From the NCBI GenBank assembly GCA_903936565.1, contig CAIZVZ010000019.1:3559-67558 (forward strand): 64,000 nt of DNA. Reading direction: 5' to 3'. Position 1 is the stretch's first letter; each line of letters opens with the position of its first letter. The notes under the pieces are model-generated. The model made no database searches. It saw nothing but the letters and a program-made list of their open reading frames with translations, and was not told where the DNA came from. This DNA comes from an uncultured bacterium. GTDB lineage: Bacteria; Patescibacteriota; Minisyncoccia; Phycocordibacterales; CAIZLB01. The position numbers and the translations under genes are program-made. Below are positions 11,975-41,763 of the stretch, one piece after another.

Positions 11975-12081
11975 ATTTGTTGGGTGTGTTTTATTTGTGC
12001 AAATTTAACTTATTTACTATTTTAGCACGATTAATCAAAACTATTTACTTTTACGTTATTTTTGATATAGTTTAAAAACAA

Positions 12082-12152
12082 GCGGGATTGGTTTAGTGGT
12101 AGAATGACTGCCTTCCAAGCAGTAGACAAGGGTTCGATTCCCTTATCCCGCA
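12082..12152 (+). tRNA. tRNA-Gly (anticodon TCC)
   Basis: Acceptor GCGGGAT/ATCCCGC, anticodon arm ACTGC-CTTCCAA-GCAGT, and T-arm AAGGGTTCGATTCCCTT. Confidence 0.8.
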
Positions 12153-12157
12153 CAAAT

Positions 12158-18948: not shown

Positions 18949-19716
18949 CTATTTTTTATCCGCTGATCCCCACAATACTTCAAAATTTTTCCAGAAACTC
19001 TCAACTACGACTTTGTTCTTGATTGAAAATACAATAGGCTTTTTACCCCAAACTGAAAGCATAACTTCACTTAGAGAGAGATTGATTGCTATTGGTCCAA
19101 AATAGTTTTTTGGAAGGAATCCAAGTTTGTATTTTTTTATATCCTTTCTTTCGTGAATGGTGTCAATTATTGGGTTTAGTTTTTTCTCAAGTAGCATTCT
19201 GACATCGCCAGTCTTTGGGAAGGTCCACTCATCTACTTTTACAAAGAAATTAGAAATCTTCTGTAGTGAACTTTTGTCAATTGCATTTGATCCAAAACCA
19301 ATAATTCCAAGGGGTTCATTTTTCTTTACGTTTTCAAGGTGTTGGCTAAATGCAAGTTGAAATCCATGCACACCTTCAAAAACGTTTATTTCATTCCTAT
19401 CCTGTTTATTCTGGGGAAGTGAGGCTATACTTTTGGATAATTTATTTAATTCCTCGAGGTTTTGTTTATATTCGTCGATTAATTGATTTGGCAATTCTGC
19501 ACGATAATACTTCACATTGTTTTTTACTAAATAAGAAACAAGACCTTTTTCTGTTAACAATCTCAGGGATTCATAAACACGTGAGCTTGAAATACCTGTC
19601 TCTTTAATTATCGCTCCGGTCTTGGATGTGCCAATAAGATACAGCGCTTCATAAACCTTTATATCATTATTGTGTAAACCAAATTGCTTTAATATTTCTA
19701 TTTTCATAATTACCAT
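18949..19716 (-). CDS. TrmB-family HTH regulator-like protein (paralog 2)
   Basis: MKIEILKQFGLHNNDIKVYEALYLIGTSKTGAIIKETGISSSRVYESLRLLTEKGLVS, with C-terminal VVESFWKNFEVLW. The start may instead be the 4th-codon Met at 19707. Confidence 0.65.
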   Translation of the reverse strand: MVIMKIEILKQFGLHNNDIKVYEALYLIGTSKTGAIIKETGISSSRVYESLRLLTEKGLVSYLVKNNVKYYRAELPNQLIDEYKQNLEELNKLSKSIASLPQNKQDRNEINVFEGVHGFQLAFSQHLENVKKNEPLGIIGFGSNAIDKSSLQKISNFFVKVDEWTFPKTGDVRMLLEKKLNPIIDTIHERKDIKKYKLGFLPKNYFGPIAINLSLSEVMLSVWGKKPIVFSIKNKVVVESFWKNFEVLWGSADKK

Positions 19717-19807
19717 ATTTAGTTATTACTCTCCTGTAAAGGAGGGTTTGATTTGTAATATATCAACAATATACACTACTCAAGATTATTAAACAAATAA
19801 AGAGAAA

Positions 19808-20944
19808 ATGAATAAATATTTAAAAGTTGTTCTTATATTATGTGTTATGGGGATTGGTGCCACTTTGCTATTTAGGAGTGTGTCTAACAATAATGAAAAC
19901 ATAAAGATTGGTGGTATCTCAGCTCTTTCTGGAGTTGGTGCTTCTGTGGGTGAGGATGAAAGAAAGGGCGCGGTTCTGGCGGTGGAAGAAGTAAATAAAA
20001 GAGGGGGAATAAACGGAAGAACAATCGAACTTATTTCTGAGGATCTTTCTATTGATAAAATTAATAAAGCCGTTTCTGTTGCGGAAAAACTTATTAATAT
20101 TGATAAGGTTGTAGCGATAGTGGGAGCACAGTGGGACGAGACTACTTTTCCAATATTACCCATCGCCGAGAAAGCTGAGGTTTCAATGGTAGGTGCTGAC
20201 AATTCTGATCAGCTTGAGAAAGATAAAGATTATCCATATTTTTTCTCTACTTGGTATGATAATCGAGTTGGGGTGAGAGAGATACTTCGCTATTCTGGTA
20301 CCCACAATATTAAAAGAATCTCAATAATTAAATTTCTCGCCGCTGGTTTCTGGGAATTTACAGCAAGAACCATGACAGATGAAGCTTCGAAGTATGATGT
20401 TGAGGTGGTAAATGAGTCCGATTTGGGGAATCCAACAGCTCTTGATTTTAGAACTGAACTACTTAAGGTAAATCAATACAATCCAGATGCAATTTTTATT
20501 GTCACAAATGACTTTAATCAATGTTCGTTTTTGAAGCAAAAAGCTGAGTTGGGAATAAATACTATTGCGTTAGGAACAGAGTCATCCGCTGATGGAACTT
20601 CAATTACAAATTGTCCTGACTTAATGGAAGACAGAGTTTGGAGTGCTCCGAAGGGCGGAAATAAATATTACGAATTTGAATCTAGATTCACGGCGCGTTT
20701 CGGTCAGAAACCAAATTCACCTTCTGCTGCAACTGCGTATGATGCCGTTATGGTCATTGCCAGTGCATTGCAAAAGACAAACGGTAGGGGTGGCGAAGAG
20801 TTACAAAACGCAATACAAGCAACAAATATCGATGGTGTTTCTGTAGATAAGATTGTATTTAATCAAAAAGGCTTTTTAGTTACTCCGGAGGATACTTTCT
20901 CCATGAAGGGATTTAAAGATGGAGAAGCGGTGGATTTGAAGTAG
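19808..20944 (+). CDS. membrane-anchored LivJ-like type-I solute-binding protein (paralog 2), orphan
   Basis: TM anchor, then IKIGGISALSGVGASVGEDERKGAVLAVEEVNKRGGINGRTIELISED. Confidence 0.7.
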   Translation: MNKYLKVVLILCVMGIGATLLFRSVSNNNENIKIGGISALSGVGASVGEDERKGAVLAVEEVNKRGGINGRTIELISEDLSIDKINKAVSVAEKLINIDKVVAIVGAQWDETTFPILPIAEKAEVSMVGADNSDQLEKDKDYPYFFSTWYDNRVGVREILRYSGTHNIKRISIIKFLAAGFWEFTARTMTDEASKYDVEVVNESDLGNPTALDFRTELLKVNQYNPDAIFIVTNDFNQCSFLKQKAELGINTIALGTESSADGTSITNCPDLMEDRVWSAPKGGNKYYEFESRFTARFGQKPNSPSAATAYDAVMVIASALQKTNGRGGEELQNAIQATNIDGVSVDKIVFNQKGFLVTPEDTFSMKGFKDGEAVDLK

Positions 20945-21022
20945 ATTTGTAGTAAATAATAAAAAACAAAACCAAGCCTATTTATAAAGCTCGGTTTTGT
21001 TTTTTGAGAAATTGTATCAAGA

Positions 21023-22165
21023 CTATTTTACATTCACCCACTCACCACCTTTAATTGTCATAAGTAGAGTATCTCTTTGTGAAACCCCCTTCTCATTGAA
21101 GCTCAGTTTTCCAGATATTCCGTCGTGATTAATCTTTGTGAAGTTTGTTGTAAAACAAGTATTGTCTATTTTACCATCCGCATTTAGACACTTCTCAATA
21201 ACGCCAGACATTGCAATTACATCGTCATATGCGAATGTAACGTCCGCTGCCAACTTTACTCCAAATCTTTTTTCGTATCTATCTTTGAACTCCTTTTGTT
21301 TTTCAGTTAATGATCCATAGACGAATCCAAACCAACCTGTCACCGTCTTGTTTTTTTCGTAGAGATTTCTAATCTCTACGGTATCACCACTTGGCAAAAA
21401 TGGAGCGAGCATTTGATATGTTTGTATGTTAATCATGCCCAATTGATCCATTTGTCTCATTAAAATATCTGATTTTGTATGAGAGCATGTGAAAATAGCA
21501 TCTGGATTCACATTCTTAATCTTAGTTAGGGTTGTTTTGAAATCATTGTCCTCTGGGGTAAACATATATTCAGCAACAAGATTCTTTCCTTCTTTGTTAA
21601 ATATTTCCTTCGCTGTACCCAAGTATTCATTACAAGCTGTGTTGTTTTGACCAAAATATGCAATTCTAACGTGATTATCTGTGATCATTTGATTTGCCAT
21701 AGTCTTACCCATGTCTTTTGTATCAAAGTAATCTCTAAAGAATAAATCATTGTTTTCTGCGATTTCTGCAAAGGCTGAAGCATAGACCATTGGTATCTCT
21801 GCATTACCTGCTGTATCCTTTACAGCCTGCGTAATGTGAGTAAAGGCAGAGAATAGAATATCTACTTTGTCCACATTAATCAGTTTATTAACTCCTGATA
21901 CCGCTGGGTTAGCCAACCCCTGATTATCTTCAGTCTTTAGCTCCAGCATCCTACCTTTGATTCCTCCCGCTTTGTTTATATCTTCAACAGCCAATAGAAG
22001 TCCATTTCTTTCGGACTCTCCAATAAATGAAAGATTACCAGAAAGCGCCAAGGTAGCACCTATTTTAATAGTATCTGCTGACTTTTTCTGTTCATTAACG
22101 CTGATTACTGAAATAATGATTACTAATACGATTGCTATAATGGTCCAAATTGTTTTGTTTTTCAT
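21023..22165 (-). CDS. membrane-anchored LivJ-like type-I solute-binding protein (paralog 3), orphan
   Basis: TM anchor, then IKIGATLALSGNLSFIGESERNGLLLAVEDINKAGGIKGRMLELKTEDNQ. Confidence 0.7.
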   Translation of the reverse strand: MKNKTIWTIIAIVLVIIISVISVNEQKKSADTIKIGATLALSGNLSFIGESERNGLLLAVEDINKAGGIKGRMLELKTEDNQGLANPAVSGVNKLINVDKVDILFSAFTHITQAVKDTAGNAEIPMVYASAFAEIAENNDLFFRDYFDTKDMGKTMANQMITDNHVRIAYFGQNNTACNEYLGTAKEIFNKEGKNLVAEYMFTPEDNDFKTTLTKIKNVNPDAIFTCSHTKSDILMRQMDQLGMINIQTYQMLAPFLPSGDTVEIRNLYEKNKTVTGWFGFVYGSLTEKQKEFKDRYEKRFGVKLAADVTFAYDDVIAMSGVIEKCLNADGKIDNTCFTTNFTKINHDGISGKLSFNEKGVSQRDTLLMTIKGGEWVNVK

Positions 22166-22290
22166 GATTTGTATATTAATTTACAAACACCATTATATGT
22201 TGCATTGTATATCTTGTCATAAAAATCGATTAAGTATTTTATATATTCCCAAATAACTAATCTATAAGCCATATTAAAGACTATTTACTG

Positions 22291-22309
22291 TTGTCGGTAT
22301 TTCTGACAC
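22291..22309 (+). promoter_or_regulatory. inverted repeat TTGTCG-N7-TGACAC 10 nt upstream of regulator paralog 3 start; candidate operator
   Basis: ttgtcg gtatttc tgacac, read directly from the sequence. It has the same 6-N7-6 architecture as the repeat at 30605-30623. Confidence 0.4.
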
Positions 22310-22319
22310 AATATGGAAT

Positions 22320-23090
22320 ATGGATGAAATATTACAAAAACTTGAGGAGTTTGGCATCAGTGAAAAGGCGGCAAAGATATATATTAGTCTGCTGCGTGAG
22401 CAAGATGTACCTGTATATAAGGTTGCTACGACCAGCAAAATACCTAGAACTACGGTTTATGCGATATTGGAGGAGTTGGAATCACAAGGTTTAGTGTCCA
22501 GTTGGAAGAAAAACAACGTAAAATACTACTCGGCAGAGAATCCTGAGAATCTTAAGAGAATATTGAAAAATAAGGAGATGGCACTTAATGAGATCTTTGG
22601 GGACTTAAGTGGAATGTTTAAGTTGGAGCGAGATAATCCTAAAACTAGGGTTTTGATTGGTGTGGAGGGAGTTAAAATAGCTTTTGAACACATGTTGGAG
22701 GTTATGGTCCAAGAGAGATTGAAGTTGGTTTATGCCTTTTTTGAATCTCAATTGACTGAATTATTCCCTAAATTCTTTTTTGAGTGGAGAGCGAGGAAAA
22801 ACAAGAAGACTGGAGCTACAACATTTCTTCTCGTTCCAAGTGGACTAGGTTTACACGAACACTACAAGAGCGATCCTTATAGAATAACCCGTGAGATGCC
22901 AAAAAAGTGGCCAGGTGGATCGTTTGCGATAATCGGAACCAATATATTTTTCTTCTCATTTAAGGAAAATGAGGTCTATTCTATAATTATTGAATCAAAA
23001 ATTATCTCCACCATGTTTGGGGGATTGTTTATGTATATTTGGAATACGCTGGATGATGATGTGGGGGTTAGAAATAAGGCTGAGTTTTAA
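22320..23090 (+). CDS. TrmB-family HTH regulator-like protein (paralog 3)
   Basis: MDEILQKLEEFGISEKAAKIYISLLREQDVPVYKVATTSKIPRTTVYAILEELESQGLVS, with C-terminal IIESKIISTMFGGLFMYIWN. Confidence 0.65.
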   Translation: MDEILQKLEEFGISEKAAKIYISLLREQDVPVYKVATTSKIPRTTVYAILEELESQGLVSSWKKNNVKYYSAENPENLKRILKNKEMALNEIFGDLSGMFKLERDNPKTRVLIGVEGVKIAFEHMLEVMVQERLKLVYAFFESQLTELFPKFFFEWRARKNKKTGATTFLLVPSGLGLHEHYKSDPYRITREMPKKWPGGSFAIIGTNIFFFSFKENEVYSIIIESKIISTMFGGLFMYIWNTLDDDVGVRNKAEF

Positions 23091-23135
23091 GTGTTCTTCT
23101 GACAATAATAATTATTAAGGTTGTGAAACGGTGTT

Positions 23136-23900
23136 TTATTTCCCCATATTCCACAAAACATCAAAAAACCTCCTATAACTCTCAACCATCTTCTGACTTT
23201 TAATTGAAAAGCGAATATGTGGTGTTCCAAATAGGTTAAACACCACTTCATTCGGAAAAATACTCATATTTACCTCATTTTCAAATCTACCATTCAATAA
23301 TCTTGATTTAAAGTTACTTCTCGGGTCATATTTTTCCTTAATTGCCTCTTCTTGCCCTAGTGACCCGACGTATTTCACGCTAATTTCTTTTTTGTTTCTC
23401 TGGTATTCATACTCCGTAAGAAGGTTTCCCATTGTTTCAGCCCACTGATCGCCAATCCCTCCAATAACAAGAAATTCAGATCCTTTTGGGGCGTCTTGCA
23501 GTGCCTTAAACTCAGATGCGATAAAAGACTCTGTTCCTTTAATAACATCAAAGTTCTGTTCATCTACATAATCAATCAAATTACTCAGGTTTTGCGATAG
23601 ATTTTCTGCAATAACCTTCTGCTTTTCAGCTTCAAGTACCAGAAGAGAGGGGTTTTGTGCTTCAAATTGCTTCCGACCGTTTTTAAGCGTGAAACGAACC
23701 ATGTTCTTTTCCTCTAGTTCTTTAAGTGAATTATAGACAAACTGGTTGTGTAACCCTGTCTCTTTAACTATCTTAGATGCTCCAACTCCACCGAGTCTGA
23801 GTAGGGAGTAGTAGACTCGTGCGGTTTTATCGCTAAAACCAAGCTTTTGGAAGTCATTTAAGAGTTTAGTGGGTATATTTTTATCAATATTGTTTGACAT
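23136..23900 (-). CDS. TrmB-family HTH regulator-like protein (paralog 4)
   Basis: LLNDFQKLGFSDKTARVYYSLLRLGGVGASKIVKETGLHNQFVYNSLKELEEKNMV, with C-terminal MVESYRRFFDVLWNMG. Confidence 0.65.
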   Translation of the reverse strand: MSNNIDKNIPTKLLNDFQKLGFSDKTARVYYSLLRLGGVGASKIVKETGLHNQFVYNSLKELEEKNMVRFTLKNGRKQFEAQNPSLLVLEAEKQKVIAENLSQNLSNLIDYVDEQNFDVIKGTESFIASEFKALQDAPKGSEFLVIGGIGDQWAETMGNLLTEYEYQRNKKEISVKYVGSLGQEEAIKEKYDPRSNFKSRLLNGRFENEVNMSIFPNEVVFNLFGTPHIRFSIKSQKMVESYRRFFDVLWNMGK

Positions 23901-24017
23901 AGTTGTAATTTAAGCCTTTATATAAATACTATTTCATATATATAACTTTGTCAATAAATCATTGTAATAATTGACAAAACTGGAATAATATATTGTATTA
24001 AAAGATAAACAATATAT

Positions 24018-25145
24018 ATGAAAAACAAAAAGAACATATTTATAGCTATAGTTGGGATTATCGTAATAGTCTCACTCGTTTGGATGGGATCTAGGGATAA
24101 TTCCGTAGTAAGTGAAAATTCAGGTAATTTTAAAGCCAACAATCAAGAAATTGTTATTGGAGCAGTACTATCAGAAACTGGAATGGCTTCAATTGATGGG
24201 AATAACATAAAGAGTGGAATTGAATTTGCAAGAGAAGAATTAGCAAAGAAGGGGATTAATGTTAAGGTTGTTTATGAAGACGATCAAACTAATCCAAAGA
24301 ATACAGTTACTGCGATTCAAAAGTTAGTTGATATTAACCACCCCCAAGCTTTGATTGGTCCTACATGGAGTTTCTTGGCTGAAGCTGCTGGTCCTGTGGT
24401 TGAGAGAAATAAGATTGTTTCAATGAGTCCAGCAAATACTAGTGAGTTTGTTTCCGTTAATTCAGGATATTTCTTCTTTGGTGCACCAAAGAATGAGGCT
24501 AAGGAGAAATATGCAACAGATTGGATTAAGGAAAGGGGATTGAAGAGAATTGCAATTGTTGTTGAGAAAAGTGGTTGGTCAGATAGTCACATTGTACCGT
24601 TTGAGAATGCGATAAAGAATGCTGGTGCAGAGCTTGTGTTCACTGAAAAATTCACCTATGCACAAAACTCAGTTGATGGTGGATCTGTAAAGGATATTAT
24701 TATGAAAGCAAAGAACGCTGGAGTTGATGGAGTGCTTTATACAGGTTTTGATCAATCAACTGCTGTTCTAATTTCAAAGAAGCAAGAATTGAAAGCAGAT
24801 TTTCAAATGCTCATGGCAACAGAAATTCCAGTGGGACTTCAAAAGAAGGGGGTTGTGAATATAAAGGATTCTGACAATATGTTTATCATTAGCCCTAAGG
24901 ATTCAGAATCTTTCAGTGATGCATACAAGGCAAGATACAATGAGTATCCAGGTGCGTATGCGGACAGAGGATATGATAGTTTGATGCTACTCGTTTCCGC
25001 TTTACAGAATAAGGGCGATATGGATCTTAAGGATTATCTAAAATCTGATTCAAGTATAAAGTATAATGGTTATGCTGGAGTGTATGACTTTGATCAGAAG
25101 GGAGATATTAAAGATAGTACTTGGAAGGTGGTGAAGATAAAATAG
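24018..25145 (+). CDS. membrane-anchored LivJ-like type-I solute-binding protein (paralog 4), orphan
   Basis: TM anchor, then IVIGAVLSETGMASIDGNNIKSGIEFAREELAKKGINVKVVYEDDQTNP. Confidence 0.7.
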   Translation: MKNKKNIFIAIVGIIVIVSLVWMGSRDNSVVSENSGNFKANNQEIVIGAVLSETGMASIDGNNIKSGIEFAREELAKKGINVKVVYEDDQTNPKNTVTAIQKLVDINHPQALIGPTWSFLAEAAGPVVERNKIVSMSPANTSEFVSVNSGYFFFGAPKNEAKEKYATDWIKERGLKRIAIVVEKSGWSDSHIVPFENAIKNAGAELVFTEKFTYAQNSVDGGSVKDIIMKAKNAGVDGVLYTGFDQSTAVLISKKQELKADFQMLMATEIPVGLQKKGVVNIKDSDNMFIISPKDSESFSDAYKARYNEYPGAYADRGYDSLMLLVSALQNKGDMDLKDYLKSDSSIKYNGYAGVYDFDQKGDIKDSTWKVVKIK

Positions 25146-25171
25146 AAAAATAGTAAACAAAAGTTTGTTAT

Positions 25172-25199
25172 ACAAAACCTATAGAAATATAGGTTTTGT
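25172..25199. terminator. bidirectional rho-independent terminator between SBP paralog 4 (+) and regulator paralog 5 (-)
   Basis: Perfect 12-bp stem ACAAAACCTATA-gaaa-TATAGGTTTTGT, flanked by A-runs on one side and T-runs on the other. Confidence 0.7.
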
Positions 25200-25208
25200 T
25201 TTTACATT

Positions 25209-25976
25209 TTATTTATCAAACTGCTTCGCACCAAGCCAGGATAATGCGTGAATTTTCTTAAACGCATCAGCAATTTCTTTACTTTCAATTATAATACCAA
25301 GCTTTTCTTTCCAAGACGCTATCATTATCTTGTTATTATAGATATTAATTTCAGGTGTGAAGTTGAACATTTCATTGGGAACCAGAAGGGTCTCTCGTAA
25401 TTCATTAGAGTCCTCCTTCTTTCTGAGTTTTCCCAACTCTGTATCTGGTACAATGGCGTGTGCCCATATCTTTTTGGCAGCTCTTCTTTTGTAATACTTT
25501 GGAAAATAGTTTGGCATTCCATCGTGCATTTCATCAACATTGGCAAATCCTAGTATTCCATCATCACTTGTGAGTGTGTCTTCATATACTTTCATCAAAC
25601 CATCTTCTCCTTCATAAAACTTCACAGAAGGTTTACTTCCTTTTGATTGAATTGCCAATAAGCGGGGGACAAGATCTTGAGCCTTATTCAGATTCTCTTC
25701 AAGTATGTTTTGCTGTCTTTTGACGTAATTGGCGATGGAGATTGGCGCTTCTGCCATAAATTCTTGCCTACTTCCTTTACCGAGCGCATTAACAATACCT
25801 TTATTGGCAAGAGAATTTAAAATGTCATATCCTGTTGTTCTGTTAATGCCTGCTTTCTTGGAAATATCAGCTACTTTTGCGTTACCTAATTCAAGTAGGG
25901 ATACGTAAACCTTGGCTTCTTTGTCGGATAGTCCTAATTTTTCTAATATAGTCTCAAGATTTGTGTACTGGCTCAT
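25209..25976 (-). CDS. TrmB-family HTH regulator-like protein (paralog 5)
   Basis: ILEKLGLSDKEAKVYVSLLELGNAKVADISKKAGINRTTGYDILNSLANKGIV, with C-terminal IIESKEIADAFKKIHALSWLG. Confidence 0.65.
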   Translation of the reverse strand: MSQYTNLETILEKLGLSDKEAKVYVSLLELGNAKVADISKKAGINRTTGYDILNSLANKGIVNALGKGSRQEFMAEAPISIANYVKRQQNILEENLNKAQDLVPRLLAIQSKGSKPSVKFYEGEDGLMKVYEDTLTSDDGILGFANVDEMHDGMPNYFPKYYKRRAAKKIWAHAIVPDTELGKLRKKEDSNELRETLLVPNEMFNFTPEINIYNNKIMIASWKEKLGIIIESKEIADAFKKIHALSWLGAKQFDK

Positions 25977-26152
25977 ATTACCCTTATTATAATAAAACTA
26001 GTACTTGTGTCAATCGTGTTCCACAGTAATGTATTTATTATGTGTTTACATATAATGCTTGTATTGCAAATAACTGTAAACTTGGCGCAATGTTTTGACA
26101 GTATTTGATCACAATATTATAATTTGTCCAATTATAAATAATAATCAAATAT

Positions 26153-27259
26153 ATGAAAAAGAAAGTCATTTGGACAGTAGTTGTAGGTATGGTAGTTATA
26201 GCGGTTATATTTGCTGTAGGTAACAATGACAAAAAAGACACGAATACGATTAAAATTGGTAGTGTTAGCGCCCTCACGGGAGACGGTGCTGTTTATGGGG
26301 AGGTTTCTAAGAGGGGGCTCGATATTGCCGTTGAGGAAATAAACGCAGTTGGGGGTGTAAATGGTAAGAAAATAGAGATGGTTTATGAGGATGGAAAGTG
26401 TGATGGCAAGTCAGCTCTAAATGGTGCGCAAAAACTACACGGCCAAGGAATTGATATTCTTTTGGGTGTGACTTGTAGTGGAGAGGTACTCTCTATTGCT
26501 CCGTTTGCCGAACAAAACAAGATGGTGTTAATCAGTCCATCTGGATCAAATCCTGATATAACAAAGGCGGGGGACTATATATTTAGAAACAACCCATCAG
26601 ACGCGAGCAGGTCTGTCGTTTTTGTCCAAAAGATTCTGGACTTGGGATATAAAAATGTGGCGATAATATCTGAACAAACTGATTTTTCACAAGGCCTTAG
26701 AAAATCAATAATTGAAGAAGGAAACAAAAAGGGGCTGAAGATTGTTTTTGATGAGGTGTTTGATAAAGACTCTAAGGATTTTAGGACAACTTTGTCTAAG
26801 TTAAAAAACACGCAGGCAGATTCATTGATACTTCTACCACAGACTGATGTAACAATGGTCCCTCTGTACTCTCAAGCTTATCAGCTGGGAATCAGATTAC
26901 CAACTTTTGTTGCTGGGGAACAGATGACTGCAAAAACAGAACAATCTTTGGGAAGTATAGTGAAGGGTGTTTACGTTGTAGAAGCTCCTGGTTTGGATTC
27001 TAATAACGAGATTGCAAATAAATTGCTGGCTAAGTATAAGGCTAAATATGGTCAGCTTACTTTGGATTTTTATATGGCAGCATCATATGACAATGCGTAT
27101 ATAATCAAGAGGGCAATTGAAATTGCTGGGACTGAAGACCCTACTAGGGTAAAAGAAGCCCTTTATAAAATCAAAGATTTCAAGGGTGCGATAGGAACTT
27201 ATGGTTTTGATTCTAATGGAGATATTCAGGGGGTGGGGTTTGTGATGAATCAAAGGTAG
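26153..27259 (+). CDS. membrane-anchored LivJ-like type-I solute-binding protein (paralog 5), orphan
   Basis: TM anchor, then IKIGSVSALTGDGAVYGEVSKRGLDIAVEEINAVGGVNGKKIEMVYEDGKCDGK. A consensus promoter TTGACA-17-TATAAT lies upstream at about 26093-26121. Confidence 0.7.
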   Translation: MKKKVIWTVVVGMVVIAVIFAVGNNDKKDTNTIKIGSVSALTGDGAVYGEVSKRGLDIAVEEINAVGGVNGKKIEMVYEDGKCDGKSALNGAQKLHGQGIDILLGVTCSGEVLSIAPFAEQNKMVLISPSGSNPDITKAGDYIFRNNPSDASRSVVFVQKILDLGYKNVAIISEQTDFSQGLRKSIIEEGNKKGLKIVFDEVFDKDSKDFRTTLSKLKNTQADSLILLPQTDVTMVPLYSQAYQLGIRLPTFVAGEQMTAKTEQSLGSIVKGVYVVEAPGLDSNNEIANKLLAKYKAKYGQLTLDFYMAASYDNAYIIKRAIEIAGTEDPTRVKEALYKIKDFKGAIGTYGFDSNGDIQGVGFVMNQR

Positions 27260-27311
27260 GATTCTGGTGGGAAGAATATTTGGGAATAAAACGTCTAGTA
27301 AAATAGGCGTT

Positions 27312-28073
27312 TTATTCTTGATTAGCAACCTTTTCTGCAACATTATTCCAAATCATGTTAAAGAATGATAAAAAGATACTACTAAATGGCTCTGATTCTA
27401 TGATTAGTGAATAAATCTTTTGATTATCCATAAAAAATAGGGCGGTCTTGTTGCCGTAGATATACATTGAACTTTTAATATCTTGCGGACCTTTGACCTC
27501 TCTAGTCTCTCTGAATGAGTTACTTTCATAGCCTTCATCAATGTCCCCTGGCACAAATTCAGGTCTGATTATTCTAATATGTATATTTGACTGCTCTCTT
27601 GTTTTAATCCATTCCCGGCTGACTTTTGGAAAATACTTAATAAAATCTGGTCTAAGGTATGCACTTATGGTTTTTACTTTTGTAAGCTTGGAATGATCTA
27701 AAATATCTTGAAGTACTGCTTTAGATCCTTCTTTTCCAGTGTATAACTTTGCGGAGGGAACAGCTCTGCCATCTTCGGAAAGTAGTCTGAGCTCTGGAAC
27801 CAGCTCCTTCATTTTCTCCAGCTTTTCTTCTTGAATTTTTAATAATCGGTTAGGACTCTCTGCTCCATAGTATTTAACTCCATTTTTCCTCCACATGCTT
27901 ACCAAACCCATTCTCTGCATTGATAGTAGGGTGTCATATATGGTTGTTTTAGCAATTCCAGTATCTTGAACGATCTGGGTAATTGAACAGTCTTTGAGCT
28001 TAAGGAGACTTAAATAGACCTGAGATTCCTTATCGGAAAAGCCAATTTGTGATAGTTGTTGAATATAATTCAT
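27312..28073 (-). CDS. TrmB-family HTH regulator-like protein (paralog 6)
   Basis: MNYIQQLSQIGFSDKESQVYLSLLKLKDCSITQIVQDTGIAKTTIYDTLLSMQRMGLVS, with C-terminal IIESEPFSSIFLSFFNMIWNN. Confidence 0.65.
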   Translation of the reverse strand: MNYIQQLSQIGFSDKESQVYLSLLKLKDCSITQIVQDTGIAKTTIYDTLLSMQRMGLVSMWRKNGVKYYGAESPNRLLKIQEEKLEKMKELVPELRLLSEDGRAVPSAKLYTGKEGSKAVLQDILDHSKLTKVKTISAYLRPDFIKYFPKVSREWIKTREQSNIHIRIIRPEFVPGDIDEGYESNSFRETREVKGPQDIKSSMYIYGNKTALFFMDNQKIYSLIIESEPFSSIFLSFFNMIWNNVAEKVANQE

Positions 28074-28221
28074 AAATGGTCGGAAAAAGCGACCAATATA
28101 TTATACATTATGAACCTTATAATACAAGTCAATTTCTGTTTCATATAAAATAGCGATTATAAAATGCGATTTAATTGACAAAGTCTAATATGATGTTGCT
28201 GTAATAATTTAAATCAAAAAT

Positions 28222-29358
28222 ATGAAAAAATACAAAATTATATGGATATCTATAGTCGTAGTACTTGCGATGGCGGTTGTGATTGCGGTTAGTGGTGGTG
28301 TGGATAGTTCCAATAATTCAGATACTATCAAGATTGGCTTTATTGGTGCTCTTTCGGGGGCTGACCCTTCATACGGAGAGGCCATGAAAGGTGGGGTAGA
28401 AATTGCTGTCGAGGAGATAAATTCTCAAGGTGGAATAGGTGGAAAAAAAGTTGAGGTAATATATGAGGATGGAAAATGTATTGATTCAAAAAGTGCCATA
28501 TCAGCTTTTCAGAAGCTGAATGATATAGATCGTGTTAAAGCCATAATTGGCGGTGGTTGTTCAAATGAAGTGGCTTCTATCACCAAAATGGTTGATAGTA
28601 ACGAGGTATTCTTGATATCCTCTGGCGCATCTAGTCCCGACATTTCTGGTTCAAGTAAATACATCTTTAGAAATTCTATAAACGATACAGAATCTAGTAA
28701 ACAATTGGCGATTCAAATCATTAAAGATGGTTACAACGATATTGCGATTATTACCGATAATTCAGATTATGCCTCAGGGTTTAGAAAATCATTTATAAAT
28801 GAGTTTGATAAGGTTGGTGGTGTCGTGAGTGTTGATACGATTGTTCAAGCCAATCAATCTGATTATAGATCTGATATTGCTAAACTAAAAGCCGTTAATC
28901 CAAAGGTAATATTTATTAATCCGGCTGTTCCAAAAACTGCGGGTATTATAATAAAACAAATAAAGGAAGCTGGTTTGAATTCTAAAATATATTTAACTTT
29001 CATGGCTACACCTGCATTTTTCAATATTGCAGGGGATAGTGCTGATGGAGCAACTGTGATTGATTTACCAAAGGTTACTGGTGATCTTTCTCGTAATATT
29101 CTTACAAAGTTTGAAACTATATACGGTCACAAAACTGTTTATGAATATAATACAGTTGCCGCCTATGATGCGGTGATGGTAATAAAAGAGGCGATAGTAA
29201 AGGTTGGATATGATTCTAACAAGATATCTAATTATTTATCTAAACATAATTTCTCTGGTGGGCTGGGTAATTTTAGTTTCAATGATCAGGGTGATGTTTC
29301 TGGAATGAAATACACACTTCAAATTATTAAGGGGCATGAGTTGGTGGAGATAAAATAG
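28222..29358 (+). CDS. membrane-anchored LivJ-like type-I solute-binding protein (paralog 6), orphan
   Basis: TM anchor, then IKIGFIGALSGADPSYGEAMKGGVEIAVEEINSQGGIGGKKVEVIYEDGKCIDSK. Confidence 0.7.
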   Translation: MKKYKIIWISIVVVLAMAVVIAVSGGVDSSNNSDTIKIGFIGALSGADPSYGEAMKGGVEIAVEEINSQGGIGGKKVEVIYEDGKCIDSKSAISAFQKLNDIDRVKAIIGGGCSNEVASITKMVDSNEVFLISSGASSPDISGSSKYIFRNSINDTESSKQLAIQIIKDGYNDIAIITDNSDYASGFRKSFINEFDKVGGVVSVDTIVQANQSDYRSDIAKLKAVNPKVIFINPAVPKTAGIIIKQIKEAGLNSKIYLTFMATPAFFNIAGDSADGATVIDLPKVTGDLSRNILTKFETIYGHKTVYEYNTVAAYDAVMVIKEAIVKVGYDSNKISNYLSKHNFSGGLGNFSFNDQGDVSGMKYTLQIIKGHELVEIK

Positions 29359-29370
29359 CTTATAAATAAA

Positions 29371-29396
29371 GGGCCCCGCAGATATCTGCGGGGCCC
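29371..29396. terminator. bidirectional rho-independent terminator between convergent SBP paralogs 6 and 7
   Basis: Perfect GC-rich palindrome GGGCCCCGCAGATATCTGCGGGGCCC, flanked by AAA on the left and TTT on the right. Confidence 0.8.
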
Positions 29397-29416
29397 TTTA
29401 TCGTAGGTTCTCGTAA

Positions 29417-30499
29417 TTATTTTATTAACATCATCACTCCATTCTCAATCTTTGCTGGAAAAAGCGGAAAATTTATTTCTCCTTTTTCATTAACATTTAA
29501 TTTCCCCATCAATCCATCAAAGTCTTTTACGTTCTTAAGATTATTGAATACTTCTTTTGAATTATTTGCGCCCTTGAGCGATTGACTATATATCCCTGTA
29601 AGATCATAACCTATTGCTGAATATGCACTTGGTTTGGTTTTATATTTATTTTCGTAAGCAGCAGAGAAGTCCATCACTTTCTGATTACCAGATAAATAAT
29701 ATTCTGGAGTTGTAAGATAGACTCCTTCGGCTAAGTTACCTGCTTTTTCTTGAACAGTTTGTGATGATAATATCCAGTTTGTCATTTTGACTTTATCGAA
29801 ATTCATTTCTTTCATCTGCTTAAGAATGCTAACAAGTTGATTATCTAATCCTATGATGTACACACCTTCAGCTTCAGAGTTTTTAATTTTAGTAATTTGA
29901 GTTTTGAAATCTTGATCCTTTTTATCAAACTCCTCAATATCTACAATAGAAGCGCCTGATTTTTCTGCAACATCTTTAAACACTTCTCCATAAGTTTTTC
30001 CATACTCGTCATTACTTACAAGAAAGGAAATCTTCTTAAGATTAAGTGATTTGGTGGCGAAGTTTGCCATGATTGGAGCTTCTTGCTCAGCTGAAGTAAA
30101 ATATCTTATAGACAAATCTCCTTGTGCTTTTCTTGCAGAAACTAATGTTTGCATAGAGAAGATTCCATCCTTTTCTGCTATCGGAACGACAGCATTAGCA
30201 ACTGAGCTTAAGGAAAGTATAACGGAACCAAGGTTGTTCTGTGATTTTAACTTCTGATATGCTGAAATTGCTGAATTGGTATTTGATTGGCTGTCTTCAT
30301 AAACTAAATTGATCTTTGTATCTTGATTAGCTAAATCCATTCCTTTCTTCATTTCCTCACCAAAAAACTGAGCGGGGCCAGTAAGGGGAAGTACGGCACC
30401 TATTACAAGAGGTTTGCTGTTACTTGAATTAGTGAATAATATTGTGCCTATTGTGATAACAAGAATAACTGCGACTATTGATATAATTTTGTTTTTCAT
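29417..30499 (-). CDS. membrane-anchored LivJ-like type-I solute-binding protein (paralog 7), orphan
   Basis: From the internal Met MKNKIISIVAVILVITIG (TM) then LVIGAVLPLTGPAQFFGEEMKKGMDLANQ. The ORF-track start at 30553 adds 18 unlikely residues. Confidence 0.65.
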   Translation of the reverse strand: MKNKIISIVAVILVITIGTILFTNSSNSKPLVIGAVLPLTGPAQFFGEEMKKGMDLANQDTKINLVYEDSQSNTNSAISAYQKLKSQNNLGSVILSLSSVANAVVPIAEKDGIFSMQTLVSARKAQGDLSIRYFTSAEQEAPIMANFATKSLNLKKISFLVSNDEYGKTYGEVFKDVAEKSGASIVDIEEFDKKDQDFKTQITKIKNSEAEGVYIIGLDNQLVSILKQMKEMNFDKVKMTNWILSSQTVQEKAGNLAEGVYLTTPEYYLSGNQKVMDFSAAYENKYKTKPSAYSAIGYDLTGIYSQSLKGANNSKEVFNNLKNVKDFDGLMGKLNVNEKGEINFPLFPAKIENGVMMLIK

Positions 30500-30604
30500 A
30501 TTTGTGTCAATATAATAAAACGATATGATAGCTCTGTCAAAGATGTATGACATAATCTAGGAATATACCGCTATAAACAAAGCCAGAACGGAAAATATGA
30601 AATG

Positions 30605-30623
30605 TTGTCACGGATTTTGACAA
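30605..30623 (+). promoter_or_regulatory. inverted repeat TTGTCA-N7-TGACAA upstream of, or overlapping the annotated start of, regulator paralog 7; overlaps a TTGACA -35-like hexamer
   Basis: ttgtca cggattt tgacaa. TTGACA at 30619-30624 is followed 17 nt later by TATTAT, and the family-consensus start MDTLEYKNKLISLGL is at 30656. Confidence 0.45.
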
Positions 30624-30655
30624 AATACATACCAAGAGATATTATTGTAATTATA

Positions 30656-31402
30656 ATGGATACACTAGAATACAAAAATAAGCTGATTTCTCTTGGTTTA
30701 ACAGATAGGCAGGCTGTTGTTTATATTAAAGCTTTGGAATTCGGATCATTTTCAGTTGCGAGTTTGGCCCATGCTACGGGTATTAAAAGGCCAACTTGCT
30801 ATCTTGTTTTGGATGAATTATCTCAAAAGGGCTTAGTTTCTGTTATTCCTAATGCTAAGAAGACCAAATATAAAGCGGAGTCACCGGAGATTCTGATCAA
30901 ACAGATTGAAACGCAGATGGTTACCGCTAAAAGAGTTTCAAATGATTTGCTCAAGCTCTATAATCCGAAGGCAGAAGGACCTACTTTGCTGTATTTCTCT
31001 GGACAGAAGGCAATCAGAGGTATATTTGATGATGTCTTGAAGGTAAAAAGTAAGGAGTATTTGTATATTGGATCAGGAAGAGATGTTATTGATATGGTTG
31101 GAAAGGAATATATTGACCATTGGCTAACGGAAAGAGTTGAAAAGGAGATAATAGCAAGAAGTATTAGAATGAAGAGTACAGAGGTTATGGAGGATATATA
31201 TCAAACAAATATTATGCGTGATTTGCGTCTTGCTCCTGATTTTATCCATATTGCTGAGACTATATTTATTTATGACAACAAAGTCTCCATCATATCTACT
31301 TCTAATGAGAACTTTGGTTTTGTTGTAGAAAACAAAGAGTTTGCAAATACCATGCGTGGCTTGTTTGAGGCACTTTGGGCAGTTTCAGAAAATAGATCAT
31401 AA
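30656..31402 (+). CDS. TrmB-family HTH regulator-like protein (paralog 7)
   Basis: MDTLEYKNKLISLGLTDRQAVVYIKALEFGSFSVASLAHATGIKRPTCYLVLDELSQKGLVS, with C-terminal VVENKEFANTMRGLFEALWAV. The ORF-track start at 30602 would place the inverted repeat inside the coding sequence. The internal Met fits the paralog N-termini better. Confidence 0.6.
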   Translation: MDTLEYKNKLISLGLTDRQAVVYIKALEFGSFSVASLAHATGIKRPTCYLVLDELSQKGLVSVIPNAKKTKYKAESPEILIKQIETQMVTAKRVSNDLLKLYNPKAEGPTLLYFSGQKAIRGIFDDVLKVKSKEYLYIGSGRDVIDMVGKEYIDHWLTERVEKEIIARSIRMKSTEVMEDIYQTNIMRDLRLAPDFIHIAETIFIYDNKVSIISTSNENFGFVVENKEFANTMRGLFEALWAVSENRS

Positions 31403-34766: not shown

Positions 34767-36620
34767 TTGACTAACGACTCATTAAGTATGCAACAGGCTA
34801 TTACAAATACTAAAGATTCGACTGAAAAGAAAGAAAAGGACGTTTTTATAGGATTAAACTTCTATAGAATCCTTAAGCTTGTTTGGGCGTATGATAAAAC
34901 CTACTTGATAGTGGAGTTTCTTTTGACTGTATTGAGGTCGGTTTTGCCGTTCGTCTTGGCTTGGTATTCGGCGTTGTTTATTAATAAAATAACATCTGGA
35001 GAATTAACTAGTATTTTTGATCCAGGACTAATTAGCATTGTCGTTGTTTACTTATCGTTGCCGCTTGTGATGGGACTAGCTGATGTTTGGTATACGTACT
35101 TTTTCAATAAATTCTATGTGTTTTTTGCTCAATATATACACTTGATGTTTATAGAAAAAAGGCATGAAATTGACGTTCAAACTTATGAAAACGCTGATTT
35201 TAACAACCTTGTCGTTAGGGTTAATGAGAATGAAGAAAAGATACTCTGGTTTACCGACTGGTTCTTTTATATAGTTGGTAAGTTTGTAGTACTAGCTTCT
35301 GTTGCCTTCATTCTTTTCAATTATAGATGGTGGTTTTTACCAATACTAATATTGTCTATACTTCCAGATTTAGTTTTGCAAATTAAGTTTGGTAAAATTA
35401 AGTATGGCATTTGGGATGCTAAATCAGAAGTTAAGCGTAAATTTAACTTGTTAACATTTTATTTTTCTGATATCGCCTCTTTAACTGAAATTAAGATATT
35501 TAAAAACAAGGATTATTTTAAAAATATAATAAGTAGCCTACTCGGGTCTTTTAATGTCGAATTAAACAACAATGAGAATCGAAGAACAAAATATAAAAAT
35601 CTAACCACCTTGATTGAGGTTTTTGTGGGTGCTGTAATTGTCTTTTATTTAATGAATGATGTGATTGGTAAAACCTTAGCAGTTGGAACATTCATCTTTC
35701 TTTTGGGTAGAATGTCTGATACTAGAGAATCAATCTCGGAACTATTTAGGGGATTTTCTATCTTGAGCAGTGATAATAAATTTATTACAGATGTTTTTAA
35801 ATTCCTTGATACAAAAAAGGTTGTGAAGAACGGTCGTGTTAAAATAGATAAGGGGACTCCTGAAATTGAATTTTCAAATGTGTCATTTGCTTACCCTGAT
35901 ACAAAAAAGAATGTACTAAATAATTTCGATTTTAAAATTAAAGCGGGGGAAAAGATTGCTATTGTTGGAGTTAATGGAGCTGGAAAGACGACTCTTACAA
36001 AATTAATAATGAGATTCTATGATGTAACAAAAGGGTCAATATCGATTGGAGGGGAAAACATAAAGAATATTGATCTATCTGATTATTACCAAAGAGTTGG
36101 ACACCTGTCTCAAAATTATGCGCATTATAAATTACCTGCTAAAGAAATTATTGCACTTGGAAACACAGAACTACCTTTAGATATTGATCGGGTGATTGAA
36201 TCTGCTAAAAAGTCTGGTGCGCATGAATTTATTTCGGCGTGGGAAAAGGGGTATGATACTCAGCTTGGAAAGGAGTTTGACGACGGTGTCGAACCGTCTG
36301 TTGGTCAGTGGCAAAAGCTTGCGCTTGCTAGAATGTTTTACAAAAATCCACAAATTTGGATATTGGATGAGCCAACAGCTTCGATTGACTCTGTTGCTGA
36401 AATGGAAATATTCCAAGAGCTAGAAAATCTACCAGAAGATAAGACTGTCATATTAATTTCTCACAGATTTAATACGGTAAAGAATGCTAACAGAATTATG
36501 GTTATTGAAGATGGGGAGGTGAAGGAGTTTGATAGCCATCACAAATTGATGAAAATCAAAGATGGAATTTATAAGAAATTATTTGAGATGCAGAAGAAGT
36601 CTTATGAGACGGTGGTATAG
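34767..36620 (+). CDS. ABC transporter, fused permease/ATP-binding protein (exporter architecture)
   Basis: Six-helix TMD N-terminal, followed by an NBD with Walker A VGVNGAGKTT, signature SVGQWQKLALAR and Walker B ILDEPT. Confidence 0.8.
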   Translation: MTNDSLSMQQAITNTKDSTEKKEKDVFIGLNFYRILKLVWAYDKTYLIVEFLLTVLRSVLPFVLAWYSALFINKITSGELTSIFDPGLISIVVVYLSLPLVMGLADVWYTYFFNKFYVFFAQYIHLMFIEKRHEIDVQTYENADFNNLVVRVNENEEKILWFTDWFFYIVGKFVVLASVAFILFNYRWWFLPILILSILPDLVLQIKFGKIKYGIWDAKSEVKRKFNLLTFYFSDIASLTEIKIFKNKDYFKNIISSLLGSFNVELNNNENRRTKYKNLTTLIEVFVGAVIVFYLMNDVIGKTLAVGTFIFLLGRMSDTRESISELFRGFSILSSDNKFITDVFKFLDTKKVVKNGRVKIDKGTPEIEFSNVSFAYPDTKKNVLNNFDFKIKAGEKIAIVGVNGAGKTTLTKLIMRFYDVTKGSISIGGENIKNIDLSDYYQRVGHLSQNYAHYKLPAKEIIALGNTELPLDIDRVIESAKKSGAHEFISAWEKGYDTQLGKEFDDGVEPSVGQWQKLALARMFYKNPQIWILDEPTASIDSVAEMEIFQELENLPEDKTVILISHRFNTVKNANRIMVIEDGEVKEFDSHHKLMKIKDGIYKKLFEMQKKSYETVV

Positions 36621-40803: not shown

Positions 40804-40806
40804 AAT

Positions 40807-41762: not shown

Positions 41763-41763
41763 C

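Follow-up and report, generated by a model that had tools for sequence, protein, structure and literature searches.

Paired TrmBL2-like regulator and LivJ-like binding-protein genes in a Paceibacteria genome: probable separately controlled receptors of one Liv-type importer

What use has a bacterium with a tiny genome for a long series of solute-binding proteins, each standing beside a regulator gene? The window, the whole 64-kb stretch of DNA that was analysed, comes from such a member of the CPR/Patescibacteria and encodes eight TrmB-HTH proteins (R, 248-266 aa) and eight Peripla_BP_6 binding proteins (B, ~370 aa), with an R gene beside a B gene in all eight pairs. Six of the pairs are contiguous (18949-31402) and follow each other in the order R2 B2 B3 R3 R4 B4 R5 B5 R6 B6 B7 R7, which is not the strict alternation of the two families that the initial annotation described. 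These six are all divergent, as it claimed, with intergenic regions of 91-176 bp, but pair 1 is convergent. The two further pairs that it placed at 13.2-15.2 kb and 62.4-64.0 kb are indeed present, and the cassette of pair 8 is found between rplB and rpsS. The genes, with their Pfam matches, are:

13212-14351, + strand: B1, LivJ-like solute-binding protein, 379 aa, N-terminal hydrophobic anchor (Peripla_BP_6 E 1e-45)
14441-15187, - strand: R1, TrmBL2-like regulator, 248 aa, convergent with B1 (TrmB HTH 39.8 bits)
18949-19716, - strand: R2, regulator, 255 aa (TrmB HTH E 1e-11)
19808-20944, + strand: B2, solute-binding protein, 378 aa (Peripla_BP_6 E 2e-46)
21023-22165, - strand: B3, solute-binding protein, 380 aa (Peripla_BP_6 E 5e-41)
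22320-23090, + strand: R3, regulator, 256 aa (TrmB HTH E 1.5e-14)
23136-23900, - strand: R4, regulator, 254 aa (TrmB HTH E 7e-11)
24018-25145, + strand: B4, solute-binding protein, 375 aa (Peripla_BP_6 E 5e-36)
25209-25976, - strand: R5, regulator, 255 aa (TrmB HTH E 5e-17)
26153-27259, + strand: B5, the most LivJ-like solute-binding protein, 368 aa (Peripla_BP_6 E 1.4e-57)
27312-28073, - strand: R6, regulator, 253 aa (TrmB HTH E 7e-12)
28222-29358, + strand: B6, solute-binding protein, 378 aa (Peripla_BP_6 E 1e-42)
29417-30499, - strand: B7, solute-binding protein, start corrected from 30553 (Peripla_BP_6 E 5e-49)
30656-31402, + strand: R7, regulator, start corrected from 30602 (TrmB HTH E 6e-12), promoter at 30617-30645
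62410-63159, - strand: R8, regulator, 249 aa, within the S10 ribosomal-protein operon (TrmB HTH E 3e-14)
63329-64000, + strand: B8, solute-binding protein truncated where the window ends (224-aa fragment, Peripla_BP_6 E 1.7e-21); 385 aa when complete, in locus L011

The B proteins are type-I binding proteins of the LivJ kind, as had been proposed. Peripla_BP_6 (PF13458) is matched by all eight ORFs, at E-values from 1e-36 to 1e-57 (1.7e-21 for the truncated B8), the full family signature of the PBP type-I fold is kept, and the NCBIfam LivJ-type subfamily is matched as well, below its cut-off. The best PDB matches of B5 are Leu/Ile/Val-binding proteins; the solved structures that B5 and B3 match are those of Leu/Ile/Val and HAAT binding proteins. 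The pocket residues differ strongly among the paralogues; only B5, B6 and B8 retain much of the LivJ-like set, and those of B3 are unlike LivJ. Judged by these residues, the only paralogues that resemble classical amino-acid binders are B5, B6 and B8, and because the pockets are so different the paralogues probably bind different solutes, which would come from the host or the environment. Identity is modest among the paralogues of the window, as first noted (13-30% for R, 19-35% for B), and the 12.4-kb block is the same in four independent assemblies, with 0-1 mismatch.

The binding-protein family is that of the E. coli LivJ/LivK-LivHMGF system (HAAT family ABC importer, TC 3.A.1.4), which likewise has more than one binding protein per translocator; over ~340 residues B5 and B6 show 26-27% identity with LivJ/LivK. 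There are, however, eight binding proteins here (possibly more than 15) against two in E. coli, they are membrane-anchored whereas LivJ/LivK are periplasmic, and most of their pockets are not of the LivJ type. Also unlike E. coli Liv, every B has an adjacent regulator gene of its own, and the transporter genes lie outside the locus.

Queries with E. coli LivH and LivM found no homologue in the window (tblastn, phmmer), LivG/LivF queries match only the nucleotide-binding domain of a 617-aa ABC protein at 34767-36620 (25% identity; tblastn or phmmer), and Pfam searches of the remaining window ORFs did not find any importer component. The ABC protein is the only one in the window and of the exporter type, as had been stated, because its nucleotide-binding domain is C-terminal. 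Neither the 64 kb nor the ~10 kb that flank it on each side (~84 kb in total) contain an importer permease or ATPase, and the pairs are without transporter genes of their own. No LivH/M/G/F was found for the window organism; the one candidate livG from its samples, P0278 (loci L182-184), may come from another Paceibacteria lineage that co-occurs there, and in its clade relative L005, R5 is only 56% identical to R5 of the window.

The initial description of the pairs as orphans with no transporter components is thus correct for the 64 kb but not for the relatives, which carry livH-livM-livG-livF as E. coli does, with a LivG that is 36% identical to that of E. coli. The ancestral unit in related Paceibacteria is an R gene divergent from B-livH-livM-livG-livF, as seen in the CPR loci L024, L030, L113 and L117 (R(-) B livH livM livG livF), and L177 has the arrangement B(-) R livHMGF. 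Many genomes have "exploded" loci (L021, L022, L102, L098, L099, L026, L031 and others), in which additional R|B cassettes separate liv genes from each other. L022 has UvrD/RsmA/LysM synteny in common with the window flank, and orthologues of pair 1 (R 49%, B 60%, there adjoining as a divergent pair) and of pair 2 (57/64%) are found around its livG and livF. No R gene is present at the non-CPR liv loci that were scanned (L032-L052, L121-L134). Since the cassettes are interleaved with one livHMGF set in CPR, we regard the array as an expanded Liv/HAAT uptake locus and not as a transporter-independent device.

The B proteins could instead be ligand sensors or adhesins exposed on the surface, or a variable surface family for host recognition and attachment by an episymbiont, with R picking which of them is displayed; surface receptors and variable surface proteins were both among the options first considered. 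A window without transporter genes would fit this, as would the N-terminal anchor, the extracytoplasmic position and the strongly diverged pockets, and in related genomes B genes have been swapped in situ between conserved R genes, in arrays that are interleaved with mobile and defence genes. Wherever the sequence context suffices, however, livHMGF surrounds or adjoins the cassettes, B5, B6 and B8 keep much of the LivJ-type amino-acid pocket and the whole family keeps the fold signature, homopolymer and phase-variation tracts are absent, and the array does not vary between the four assemblies. We find a surface function of this kind quite improbable.

Cassettes that in the relatives stand among the genes of one Liv-type importer most likely mean separately switched receptors for a shared transporter. 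That differently specific binding proteins feed one such importer, each gene under a local TrmBL2-like repressor, is the explanation we consider likely, and among the options of the initial annotation the comparative data favour ligand-specific modules with a shared, distant importer. The locus would be the receptor-and-control part of a binding-protein-dependent ABC importer of the Liv type (HAAT family) in Paceibacteria (CPR). Each B would bind its solute outside the cytoplasm, with the N-terminal hydrophobic segment as a tether, and all of them would dock on a single LivHM-LivGF translocator encoded elsewhere in the genome; we infer that the window organism has LivHMGF. One cassette within the S10 ribosomal operon, and the insertion of others between liv genes in relatives, could also be taken to mean that the cassettes are semi-autonomous mobile modules spread by recombination, with a copy number that reflects selfish amplification and not a selected function, and the neighbourhood in the relatives (AbiEii, KilA-N, PycTM, a serine recombinase, PRiA4_ORF3) is compatible with that. 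But neither a transposase nor an integrase nor terminal repeats are found at the flanks of the cassettes, the paralogues, at 13-35% identity, are ancient as well as intact, and orthologous pairs are kept across genera, so that we give this explanation hardly any credence.

The HTH of the regulators is genuine, as all eight R ORFs match TrmB (PF01978) at 39.8-62 bits (E 4e-10 to 5e-17), where the gathering score is 25.6. The C-terminal motif reported for them is only partly general: the final W is invariant in the eight proteins, but I-I-E-S occurs only in R3 and R5-R8. Their architecture, a wHTH followed by a long dimerisation helix and a catalytically inactive PLD-like domain, is that of TrmBL2, the chromatin protein and global repressor of Thermococcales (PDB 5BQT, 5BPD), and the AF2 model of R5 (pLDDT 92.7) matches full-length TrmBL2 (Foldseek E 1e-13; profile match of residues 14-253 to 12-262). 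Length and three-part architecture are common to both and neither has an effector subdomain, although sequence identity is only ~15%. TrmBL2 is an abundant nucleoid protein that binds DNA non-specifically, whereas the R paralogues are tied to specific conserved palindromes and individual target genes. As Pfam searches of the R proteins gave no match to the TrmB sugar-binding subdomain (PF11495), and TrmBL2, their closest structural relative, is non-specific and has no known ligand, effector sensing by R is unsupported; that each R might respond to the solute imported via its partner B is the weakest part of our explanation.

Archaeal TrmB is encoded within the operon of a binding-protein-dependent ABC importer, which it represses via a palindrome at the promoter of the binding-protein gene (PMC4158304). 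The R genes are likewise embedded in the locus of such an importer, but R lacks the C-terminal sugar-binding subdomain, is bacterial with sigma-70 promoters, goes with a Liv-type and not a MalEFGK-type transporter, and has many paralogues, one per binding protein; the operators also differ (TGTC-N9/10-GACA for R, TACT-N3-AGTA for archaeal TrmB). In the literature searched, no paper that mentions Patescibacteria or the candidate phyla radiation also mentions TrmB, in line with the initial annotation, which did not recognise a described system.

Each unit is bounded by consensus divergent promoters and hairpin terminators, and the intergenic regions contain the following predicted elements:

19728-19747: palindrome ACTCTCC-N6-GGAGGGT beside the R2 start, kept in four orthologous R2|B2 intergenic regions that have otherwise diverged; candidate R2 operator or Shine-Dalgarno-sequestering hairpin
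20961-21005: hairpin terminator between the convergent B2 and B3
22292-22308: operator-like palindrome TGTC-N9-GACA directly upstream of R3, also upstream of the R3 orthologue in L021
25172-25199: hairpin between B4 and R5, similar to the B2/B3 terminator
25986-26123: back-to-back perfect (12/12) sigma-70 promoters of R5 and B5
26008-26025: TGTC-N10-CACA over the R5 -35 box, a motif kept upstream of five R5 orthologues
28077-28095: palindrome TGGTCG-N7-CGACCA (GGTC-N9-GACC), 3 nt upstream of the R6 start
~29370-29402: hairpin between B6 and B7, similar to the B2/B3 terminator
30535-30552: TGTC-N9/10-GACA over the B7 -35 box, one of two palindromes in 30535-30622
30606-30622: TGTC-N9/10-GACA over the R7 -35 box, kept in L098, L107 and L031
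63258-63274: TGTC-N9-GACA over the predicted B8 promoter (10/12, found on L011)

The corrected starts of B7 (30499) and R7 (30656) are likely, since the longer versions of these ORFs would contain 11/12 consensus promoters, that of B7 at 30540-30512. TGTC-N9/10-GACA occurs four times in the 64 kb, where 1.34 are expected, each time in an R|B intergenic promoter region, and 5 of the 14 occurrences of GTC-N9/10-GAC fall in R|B intergenic DNA, which makes up 2.3% of the sequence. In other CPR loci (548 kb), 13 of 21 TGTC-N9/10-GACA matches are in the 3.9% upstream of R/B genes, and all 13 adjoin an R start. The enrichment is somewhat inflated, since half of each palindrome is at the same time the -35 box TTGACA. 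Footprints are kept among the orthologues of R5, R7, R3 and R2. Most operator-like sites cover the R promoter and not the B promoter, so that pairs 7 and 8, in which the B promoter is overlapped, are the only ones that directly suggest a control of B. We infer that R acts as a repressor: it would recognise a palindrome specific to the paralogue, typically TGTC-N9/10-GACA, within the 90-180 bp of back-to-back promoters that it has in common with B, and repress its own gene and, in pairs 7 and 8, that of B as well. Repression from an own palindrome would let each receptor be switched individually.

R and B are inherited together to a large extent. In L021, L022 and L026 an R2 orthologue (40-57%) has a B2 orthologue as its partner, and in L098 a B7 orthologue (50%) is paired with an R7 orthologue. 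The phylogenies of 44 non-redundant divergent pairs mirror each other (r=0.80, reached by 0 of 5000 permutations); a tree of the pairs had been suggested as a test of co-duplication. Partner swaps do occur (an R 80% identical with a B of 29%, an R of 60% with a B of 24%), so that R and B are not strictly coupled one to one in function. R5 orthologues are 55-58% identical and widespread, which makes R5 a conserved Paceibacteria regulator, and in two other Paceibacteria genomes examined they are solitary, with no B or liv genes nearby. Swaps and solitary genes would also fit regulators that sense nothing, being TrmBL2-like architectural or insulator proteins or simple autoregulators, with an adjacency that stems from co-duplication and promoter sharing and with B constitutive or globally controlled, still serving the Liv importer. 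The closest full-length structural match is after all a chromatin protein, the effector subdomain is absent, and palindromes that lie mostly on the R promoter suggest autoregulation. The distinct conserved palindromes of each paralogue argue for sequence-specific binding, however, sites overlap the B promoters of two pairs, co-inheritance is strong, and at least eight diverged paralogues in a reduced genome are hard to explain without distinct roles, for which reasons we hold non-sensing regulators to be unlikely.

ABC importers with several receptors and "orphan" binding proteins are known from Borrelia, a host-dependent organism with a reduced genome, where OppA1-5 go with one OppBCDF, and from the orphan LivJ-like proteins of Rhodopseudomonas palustris. 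In these systems differently specific and separately expressed binding proteins serve one translocator, as we propose here. To our knowledge their binding-protein genes are not each accompanied by a dedicated one-component regulator that was duplicated with them, nor are cassettes interleaved in the transporter operon. The array of Paceibacteria would thus follow a known principle, several receptors for one transporter, on an unusually large scale.

The initial annotation had described eight pairs, each made up of a TrmB-type regulator gene (R1-R8) and a LivJ-like binding-protein gene (B1-B8). This was confirmed with minor corrections, with domain matches for all 16 proteins.

Regulator (R) and binding-protein (B) genes of the window
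13212-14351: B1, Peripla_BP_6 match
14441-15187: R1, Pfam TrmB match
18949-31402: twelve ORFs in the order R2 B2 B3 R3 R4 B4 R5 B5 R6 B6 B7 R7
62410-63159: R8, Pfam TrmB match
63329-64000: B8, truncated, Peripla_BP_6 match

All six pairs of the block at 18949-31402 are divergent, as had been claimed, with spacers of 91-176 bp; the two genes of pair 1 are convergent, not divergent. The spacers carry back-to-back consensus sigma-70 promoters, including two perfect ones (12/12) between R5 and B5, and the convergent genes of the block are separated by hairpin terminators. Since promoters were found inside the longer ORF versions of B7 and R7, their predicted starts were moved to 30499 and 30656. 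Identity between paralogues is as modest as first proposed, 13-30% for R and 19-35% for B, and both sets of paralogues appear to be old. Control of the B genes by riboswitches or T-boxes was rejected, as an Rfam scan of the window yields nothing but four tRNAs, and so was phase variation, as the array has no homopolymer tracts and the assemblies do not differ. Four assemblies share an identical 12.4-kb block. The GC content is about 36%, and exact window proteins recur on contigs as long as 110-118 kb from groundwater metagenomes (ENA BUCK21-1 series, JGI 3300045651, NCBI); homologues carry the names Paceibacterota, Parcubacteria or Taylorbacteria. The organism belongs to the CPR/Patescibacteria.

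Elsewhere the window holds housekeeping genes (RNase Y, ClpP, RsmE, trigger factor, NusA), TIM, PGK, RecJ, ComEC, the str/S10 ribosomal operons and a type IV pilus cluster. The latter (37737-43468) comprises a PilB-like ATPase, a PilC-like platform protein, a prepilin with an N-methylation motif and three ORFs without Pfam matches, and upstream of it lies a 326-aa ORF without matches (36631-37611). A 408-aa ORF without Pfam match (2029-3255) adjoins an NYN-domain protein and is kept on all contigs of the organism. B1 is directly preceded by two protease genes (10769-12976), one for a trypsin-like serine protease and the other for a Peptidase_C39_2 cysteine protease. The start listed for the second ORF overlaps a gene for tRNA-Gly (12082-12153) and must in reality lie further downstream.

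The winged helix-turn-helix of TrmB (Pfam PF01978) was found in all eight R proteins at 39.8-62 bits, well above the gathering cut-off of 25.6, and the TrmB assignment of the initial annotation thus holds. They are not TrmB sensu stricto, i.e. the sugar-sensing TrmB/TrmBL1. None matches the sugar-binding subdomain PF11495 at E<=0.01, the NCBIfam equivalog models for TrmB/TrmBL1 are covered only over the N-terminal ~115 of 338-341 positions and far below the cut-offs, the R profile aligns with residues 4-142 only of 3QPH, and the proteins are 248-266 aa long compared with ~340 aa. A structural model of one pair had been suggested as a check; here R5 was modelled with AlphaFold (43 sequences, pLDDT 92.7). 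In the R5 model, a winged helix is followed by a helix of 34 residues and an alpha/beta domain, a TrmBL2-like fold. Sequence profile and Foldseek both match R to TrmBL2 over the whole chain, and R has the corresponding features: a winged helix-turn-helix, a long coiled-coil helix and a PLD-like C-terminal domain within ~260 aa. In 15 aligned R proteins no H-x-K of the catalytic HxK(x)4D (HKD) motif is conserved in this last domain, which shares the fold alone with the PLD/Nuc phosphodiesterase superfamily. Because of the whole-chain TrmBL2 match, the lack of a conserved HKD motif and the missing sugar subdomain, R are classed as TrmB-family proteins with TrmBL2 architecture.

All eight B proteins match Peripla_BP_6 (PF13458; E 1e-36 to 1e-57 over ~325 residues, and 1.7e-21 for the truncated B8), and this part of the domain check came out as proposed. 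They match an NCBIfam LivJ-type subfamily below its cut-off and structures such as 4GNR, 4N0Q, 1USG and 1Z15 in the PDB, and B5 and B3 resemble solved Leu/Ile/Val and HAAT-family proteins, which places them among the type I periplasmic binding proteins, in the LivJ/HAAT branch. Every B starts with a Lys-rich stretch followed by ~20 hydrophobic residues. The lipobox [LVI][ASTVI][GAS]C is absent from all eight N-termini, seven of which have no Cys, while the Cys of B2 is in a non-lipobox context; we infer that the proteins are held by an uncleaved signal anchor. We compared the residues that contact the ligand in LivJ (Y18, C78, S79, A100-T102, D121, Y150, Y202 and E226) in alignments of 20-27% identity, where single columns are uncertain. 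B5, B6 and B8 retain Y18, C78, S79, D121, Y/F150 and a Ser for T102; conservation at positions 100-101 is loose (B5, B6), and for Y202 and E226 none is seen in these three. At the same 20-27% identity, nearly all contact positions differ in the remaining five B proteins and in most of a second array found in a metagenome. Because these positions diverge among the paralogues, the B proteins probably bind different solutes, with a confidence limited by the depth of the alignment.

The window has four copies of the palindrome TGTC-N9/10-GACA, where 1.34 are expected, and each copy lies in the promoter region of an R-B pair.

Copies of TGTC-N9/10-GACA in the window
Upstream of R3
Over the -35 boxes of B7 and R7, one copy each
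Over the promoter of B8

Other CPR loci, 548 kb in total, have 21 copies, of which 13 are within the 3.9% of the sequence that is upstream of R or B genes, and all 13 directly precede an R start. The enrichment is somewhat inflated because part of each site coincides with the -35 hexamer, which would not explain the second half-site at a fixed spacing, nor the conservation of the sites. Among orthologues the R7 footprint is TTGTCA-N7-TGACAA and that of R3 is TGTC-N9-GACA, and R5 has TGT(G/C)-N10-GACA over its -35 box, kept in five genomes. A single operator common to all pairs was rejected, as the palindromes of R2 (ACTCTCC-N6-GGAGAGT beside its start, kept in four genomes) and R6 (GGTC-N9-GACC) are unlike the TGTC type. 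The R2 element could also be something else than a DNA operator: at 19728-19747, and at the orthologous sites in the related loci L021, L022 and L026, the R2 mRNA strand pairs a Shine-Dalgarno-like GGAGAG with an upstream CTCTCC, and an RNA hairpin could thus mask the ribosome-binding site. Taken together, the palindromes support sequence-specific binding in the promoter region shared by R and B. TrmBL2-type chromatin proteins, in contrast, bind DNA non-specifically and coat the genome, and the conserved, paralogue-specific palindromes would argue for specific binding by R. The predicted R operators fit a precedent from archaea, where TrmB acts through a palindrome to repress the gene for the binding protein in its own ABC importer operon (PMC4158304).

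Co-duplication of regulator and receptor, which had been proposed for testing by all-vs-all comparison of the pairs, did not show within the window: the great age of the paralogues leaves the 8x8 identity matrices of R and B uncorrelated (r=0). Only a set of 44 non-redundant divergent pairs from many genomes makes the test informative, and here R and B identities are correlated (r=0.80, reached by none of 5000 permutations). Orthologous pairs also recur, namely R2-B2 (in three genomes), R1-B1, R7-B7 and R8-B8, and R5 orthologues recur with B5/B6-like partners. There are exceptions: in one lineage B3-like proteins are the neighbours of R7-like regulators, the partners of R3-like regulators are unrelated, and between L184 (9862-11859) and L020 (6-1990) the flanking regulators are 80% and 84% identical while the enclosed B gene is only 29% identical, which indicates replacement in situ, or differential loss, of B genes. 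The pairs are inherited mostly as units, but not strictly so.

As first claimed, the window holds no importer permease: E. coli LivH and LivM find no match, and LivG and LivF, the ATPases of the same Liv-type importer, match only the nucleotide-binding domain (~25% identity) of a 617-aa protein, the sole ABC protein of the window, in which this domain is C-terminal. Liv importer genes were not found within ~10 kb on either side. In related CPR genomes, however, homologous cassettes have livHMGF genes next to them or in between. L005, likewise from a CPR genome, contains at least seven R-B pairs, and one gene in their midst shares 36% identity with E. coli LivG. With this LivG we retrieved loci from species genomes and metagenomes that were annotated by R, B and E. 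coli Liv profiles. Some operons are canonical, B-livH-livM-livG-livF, and in many of these an R gene lies upstream in divergent orientation (L024, L030, L113, L117), and in L177 R is directly upstream of livHMGF, in the same direction and divergent from B. Others are exploded, with R-B cassettes or extra B genes between the liv genes (L022, L102, L021, L027). The order in L022 is B, R-B, R-B, B-R, livG, R-B, R-B, livF; its UvrD, RsmA and LysM peptidase genes have the same order as in the upstream flank of the window (45-51% identity), and it has orthologues of pair 2 (57/64%) and pair 1 (49/60%); L022 is a genuine relative of the window organism. Given the liv-linked cassettes and this synteny, the cassettes are therefore taken to belong to a Liv (HAAT) importer system. 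No non-CPR liv locus retrieved has an R-type gene, and the association appears to be specific to CPR in this sample.

The relatives' arrays seem to lie in plastic genome regions. In or beside them are AbiEii, PRiA4_ORF3, an AAA_14/DUF4143 ATPase, KilA-N, PycTM, a serine recombinase and DNA methyltransferases (L005 2648-3343; L102 7517-9975; L186 72-980 and 5436-5996; L177 1272-4406 and 13943-15950). Orthologues of R5 (25209-25976) are found throughout Paceibacteria at 55-58% identity, and in two genomes (L007, and L009 8001-8790) the gene is single, without a B gene, near trigger factor, RsmE, ClpP, RNase Y and HU. As the lone orthologues share that neighbourhood, the window array sits at the ancestral R5 site. 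R5 may be a core CPR regulator. Pair 8 has a different setting, since R8, B8 and a 69-aa ORF are inserted between rplB (L2) and rpsS (S19) of an otherwise canonical S10 operon (62030-64000; L011 7829-11130). B8 is co-directional with the operon, R8 is antisense, and a new promoter-like site precedes rpsS; a search for mobile elements found no convincing direct or inverted terminal repeats flanking this cassette.

Scans for CPR LivG in genome contigs and metagenomes gave no contig from the JGI sample of the window, and LivH searches matched other samples only. When LivG clusters were fingerprinted by source and contig counts, one of them, P0278, turned up in two samples that contain the window as well, and in about as many data blocks. 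Its livG lies within the second array, which has at least seven R and nine B genes (L182 1-15608, L184 1-13623), as well as a 317-aa protein and a KilA-N gene whose product, at an R position, was rejected as unrelated to R. By synteny with close relatives, livF-livH are placed just beyond the sequence obtained. The second array shares no orthologous pair with the eight of the window, and a tetranucleotide similarity of 0.98 does not discriminate it from other CPR loci. The P0278 clade (L102, L019, L005) looks like a different lineage: R5 of L005 is 56% identical to that of the window, compared with 80-98% in the window's own relatives, and for this reason the second array may be that of another, co-occurring member of the Paceibacteria.

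In the reading that we favour, the locus supplies the receptors of a Liv-type ABC importer and their control. Many membrane-tethered binding proteins of different specificity would feed the importer, and each would have a promoter of its own and, next to it, the gene of a TrmBL2-like repressor dedicated to it. That several binding proteins share one translocator is well known, and so is TrmB control of ABC importers. What is new is the cassette of one regulator per receptor, its amplification, in a reduced genome, to at least eight copies, its interleaving with the genes of liv operons, and the predicted specific-operator role for a TrmBL2-type protein in bacteria. To our knowledge, this architecture has so far been studied only as an archaeal chromatin protein, and in the literature searched we found no paper on TrmB together with Patescibacteria or the candidate phyla radiation. 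It is conceivable, if rather doubtful, that an amplifiable sensor-receptor cassette has evolved in Paceibacteria, in which the degenerate PLD-like domain of the repressor reads how much of the solute that its partner B captures for a common Liv translocator is present in the cytoplasm. If so, the cassettes, 8 to more than 15 in number, would provide a ~1 Mb episymbiont with its dominant family of transcription factors and its dominant network for sensing nutrients, and the repertoire would be a readable inventory of the metabolites taken from the host. If the cassettes are ligand-blind, what remains is a multi-receptor Liv locus of unusual size.

CPR/Patescibacteria, which are uncultivated and depend metabolically on others, are generally credited with very few regulators. 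The predicted operator TGTC-N9/10-GACA and the structure of the regulon give a testable handle on their regulation, soluble binding proteins are a route to the host metabolites that CPR scavenge, and the cassettes would offer a bacterial function for the TrmBL2-type architecture.
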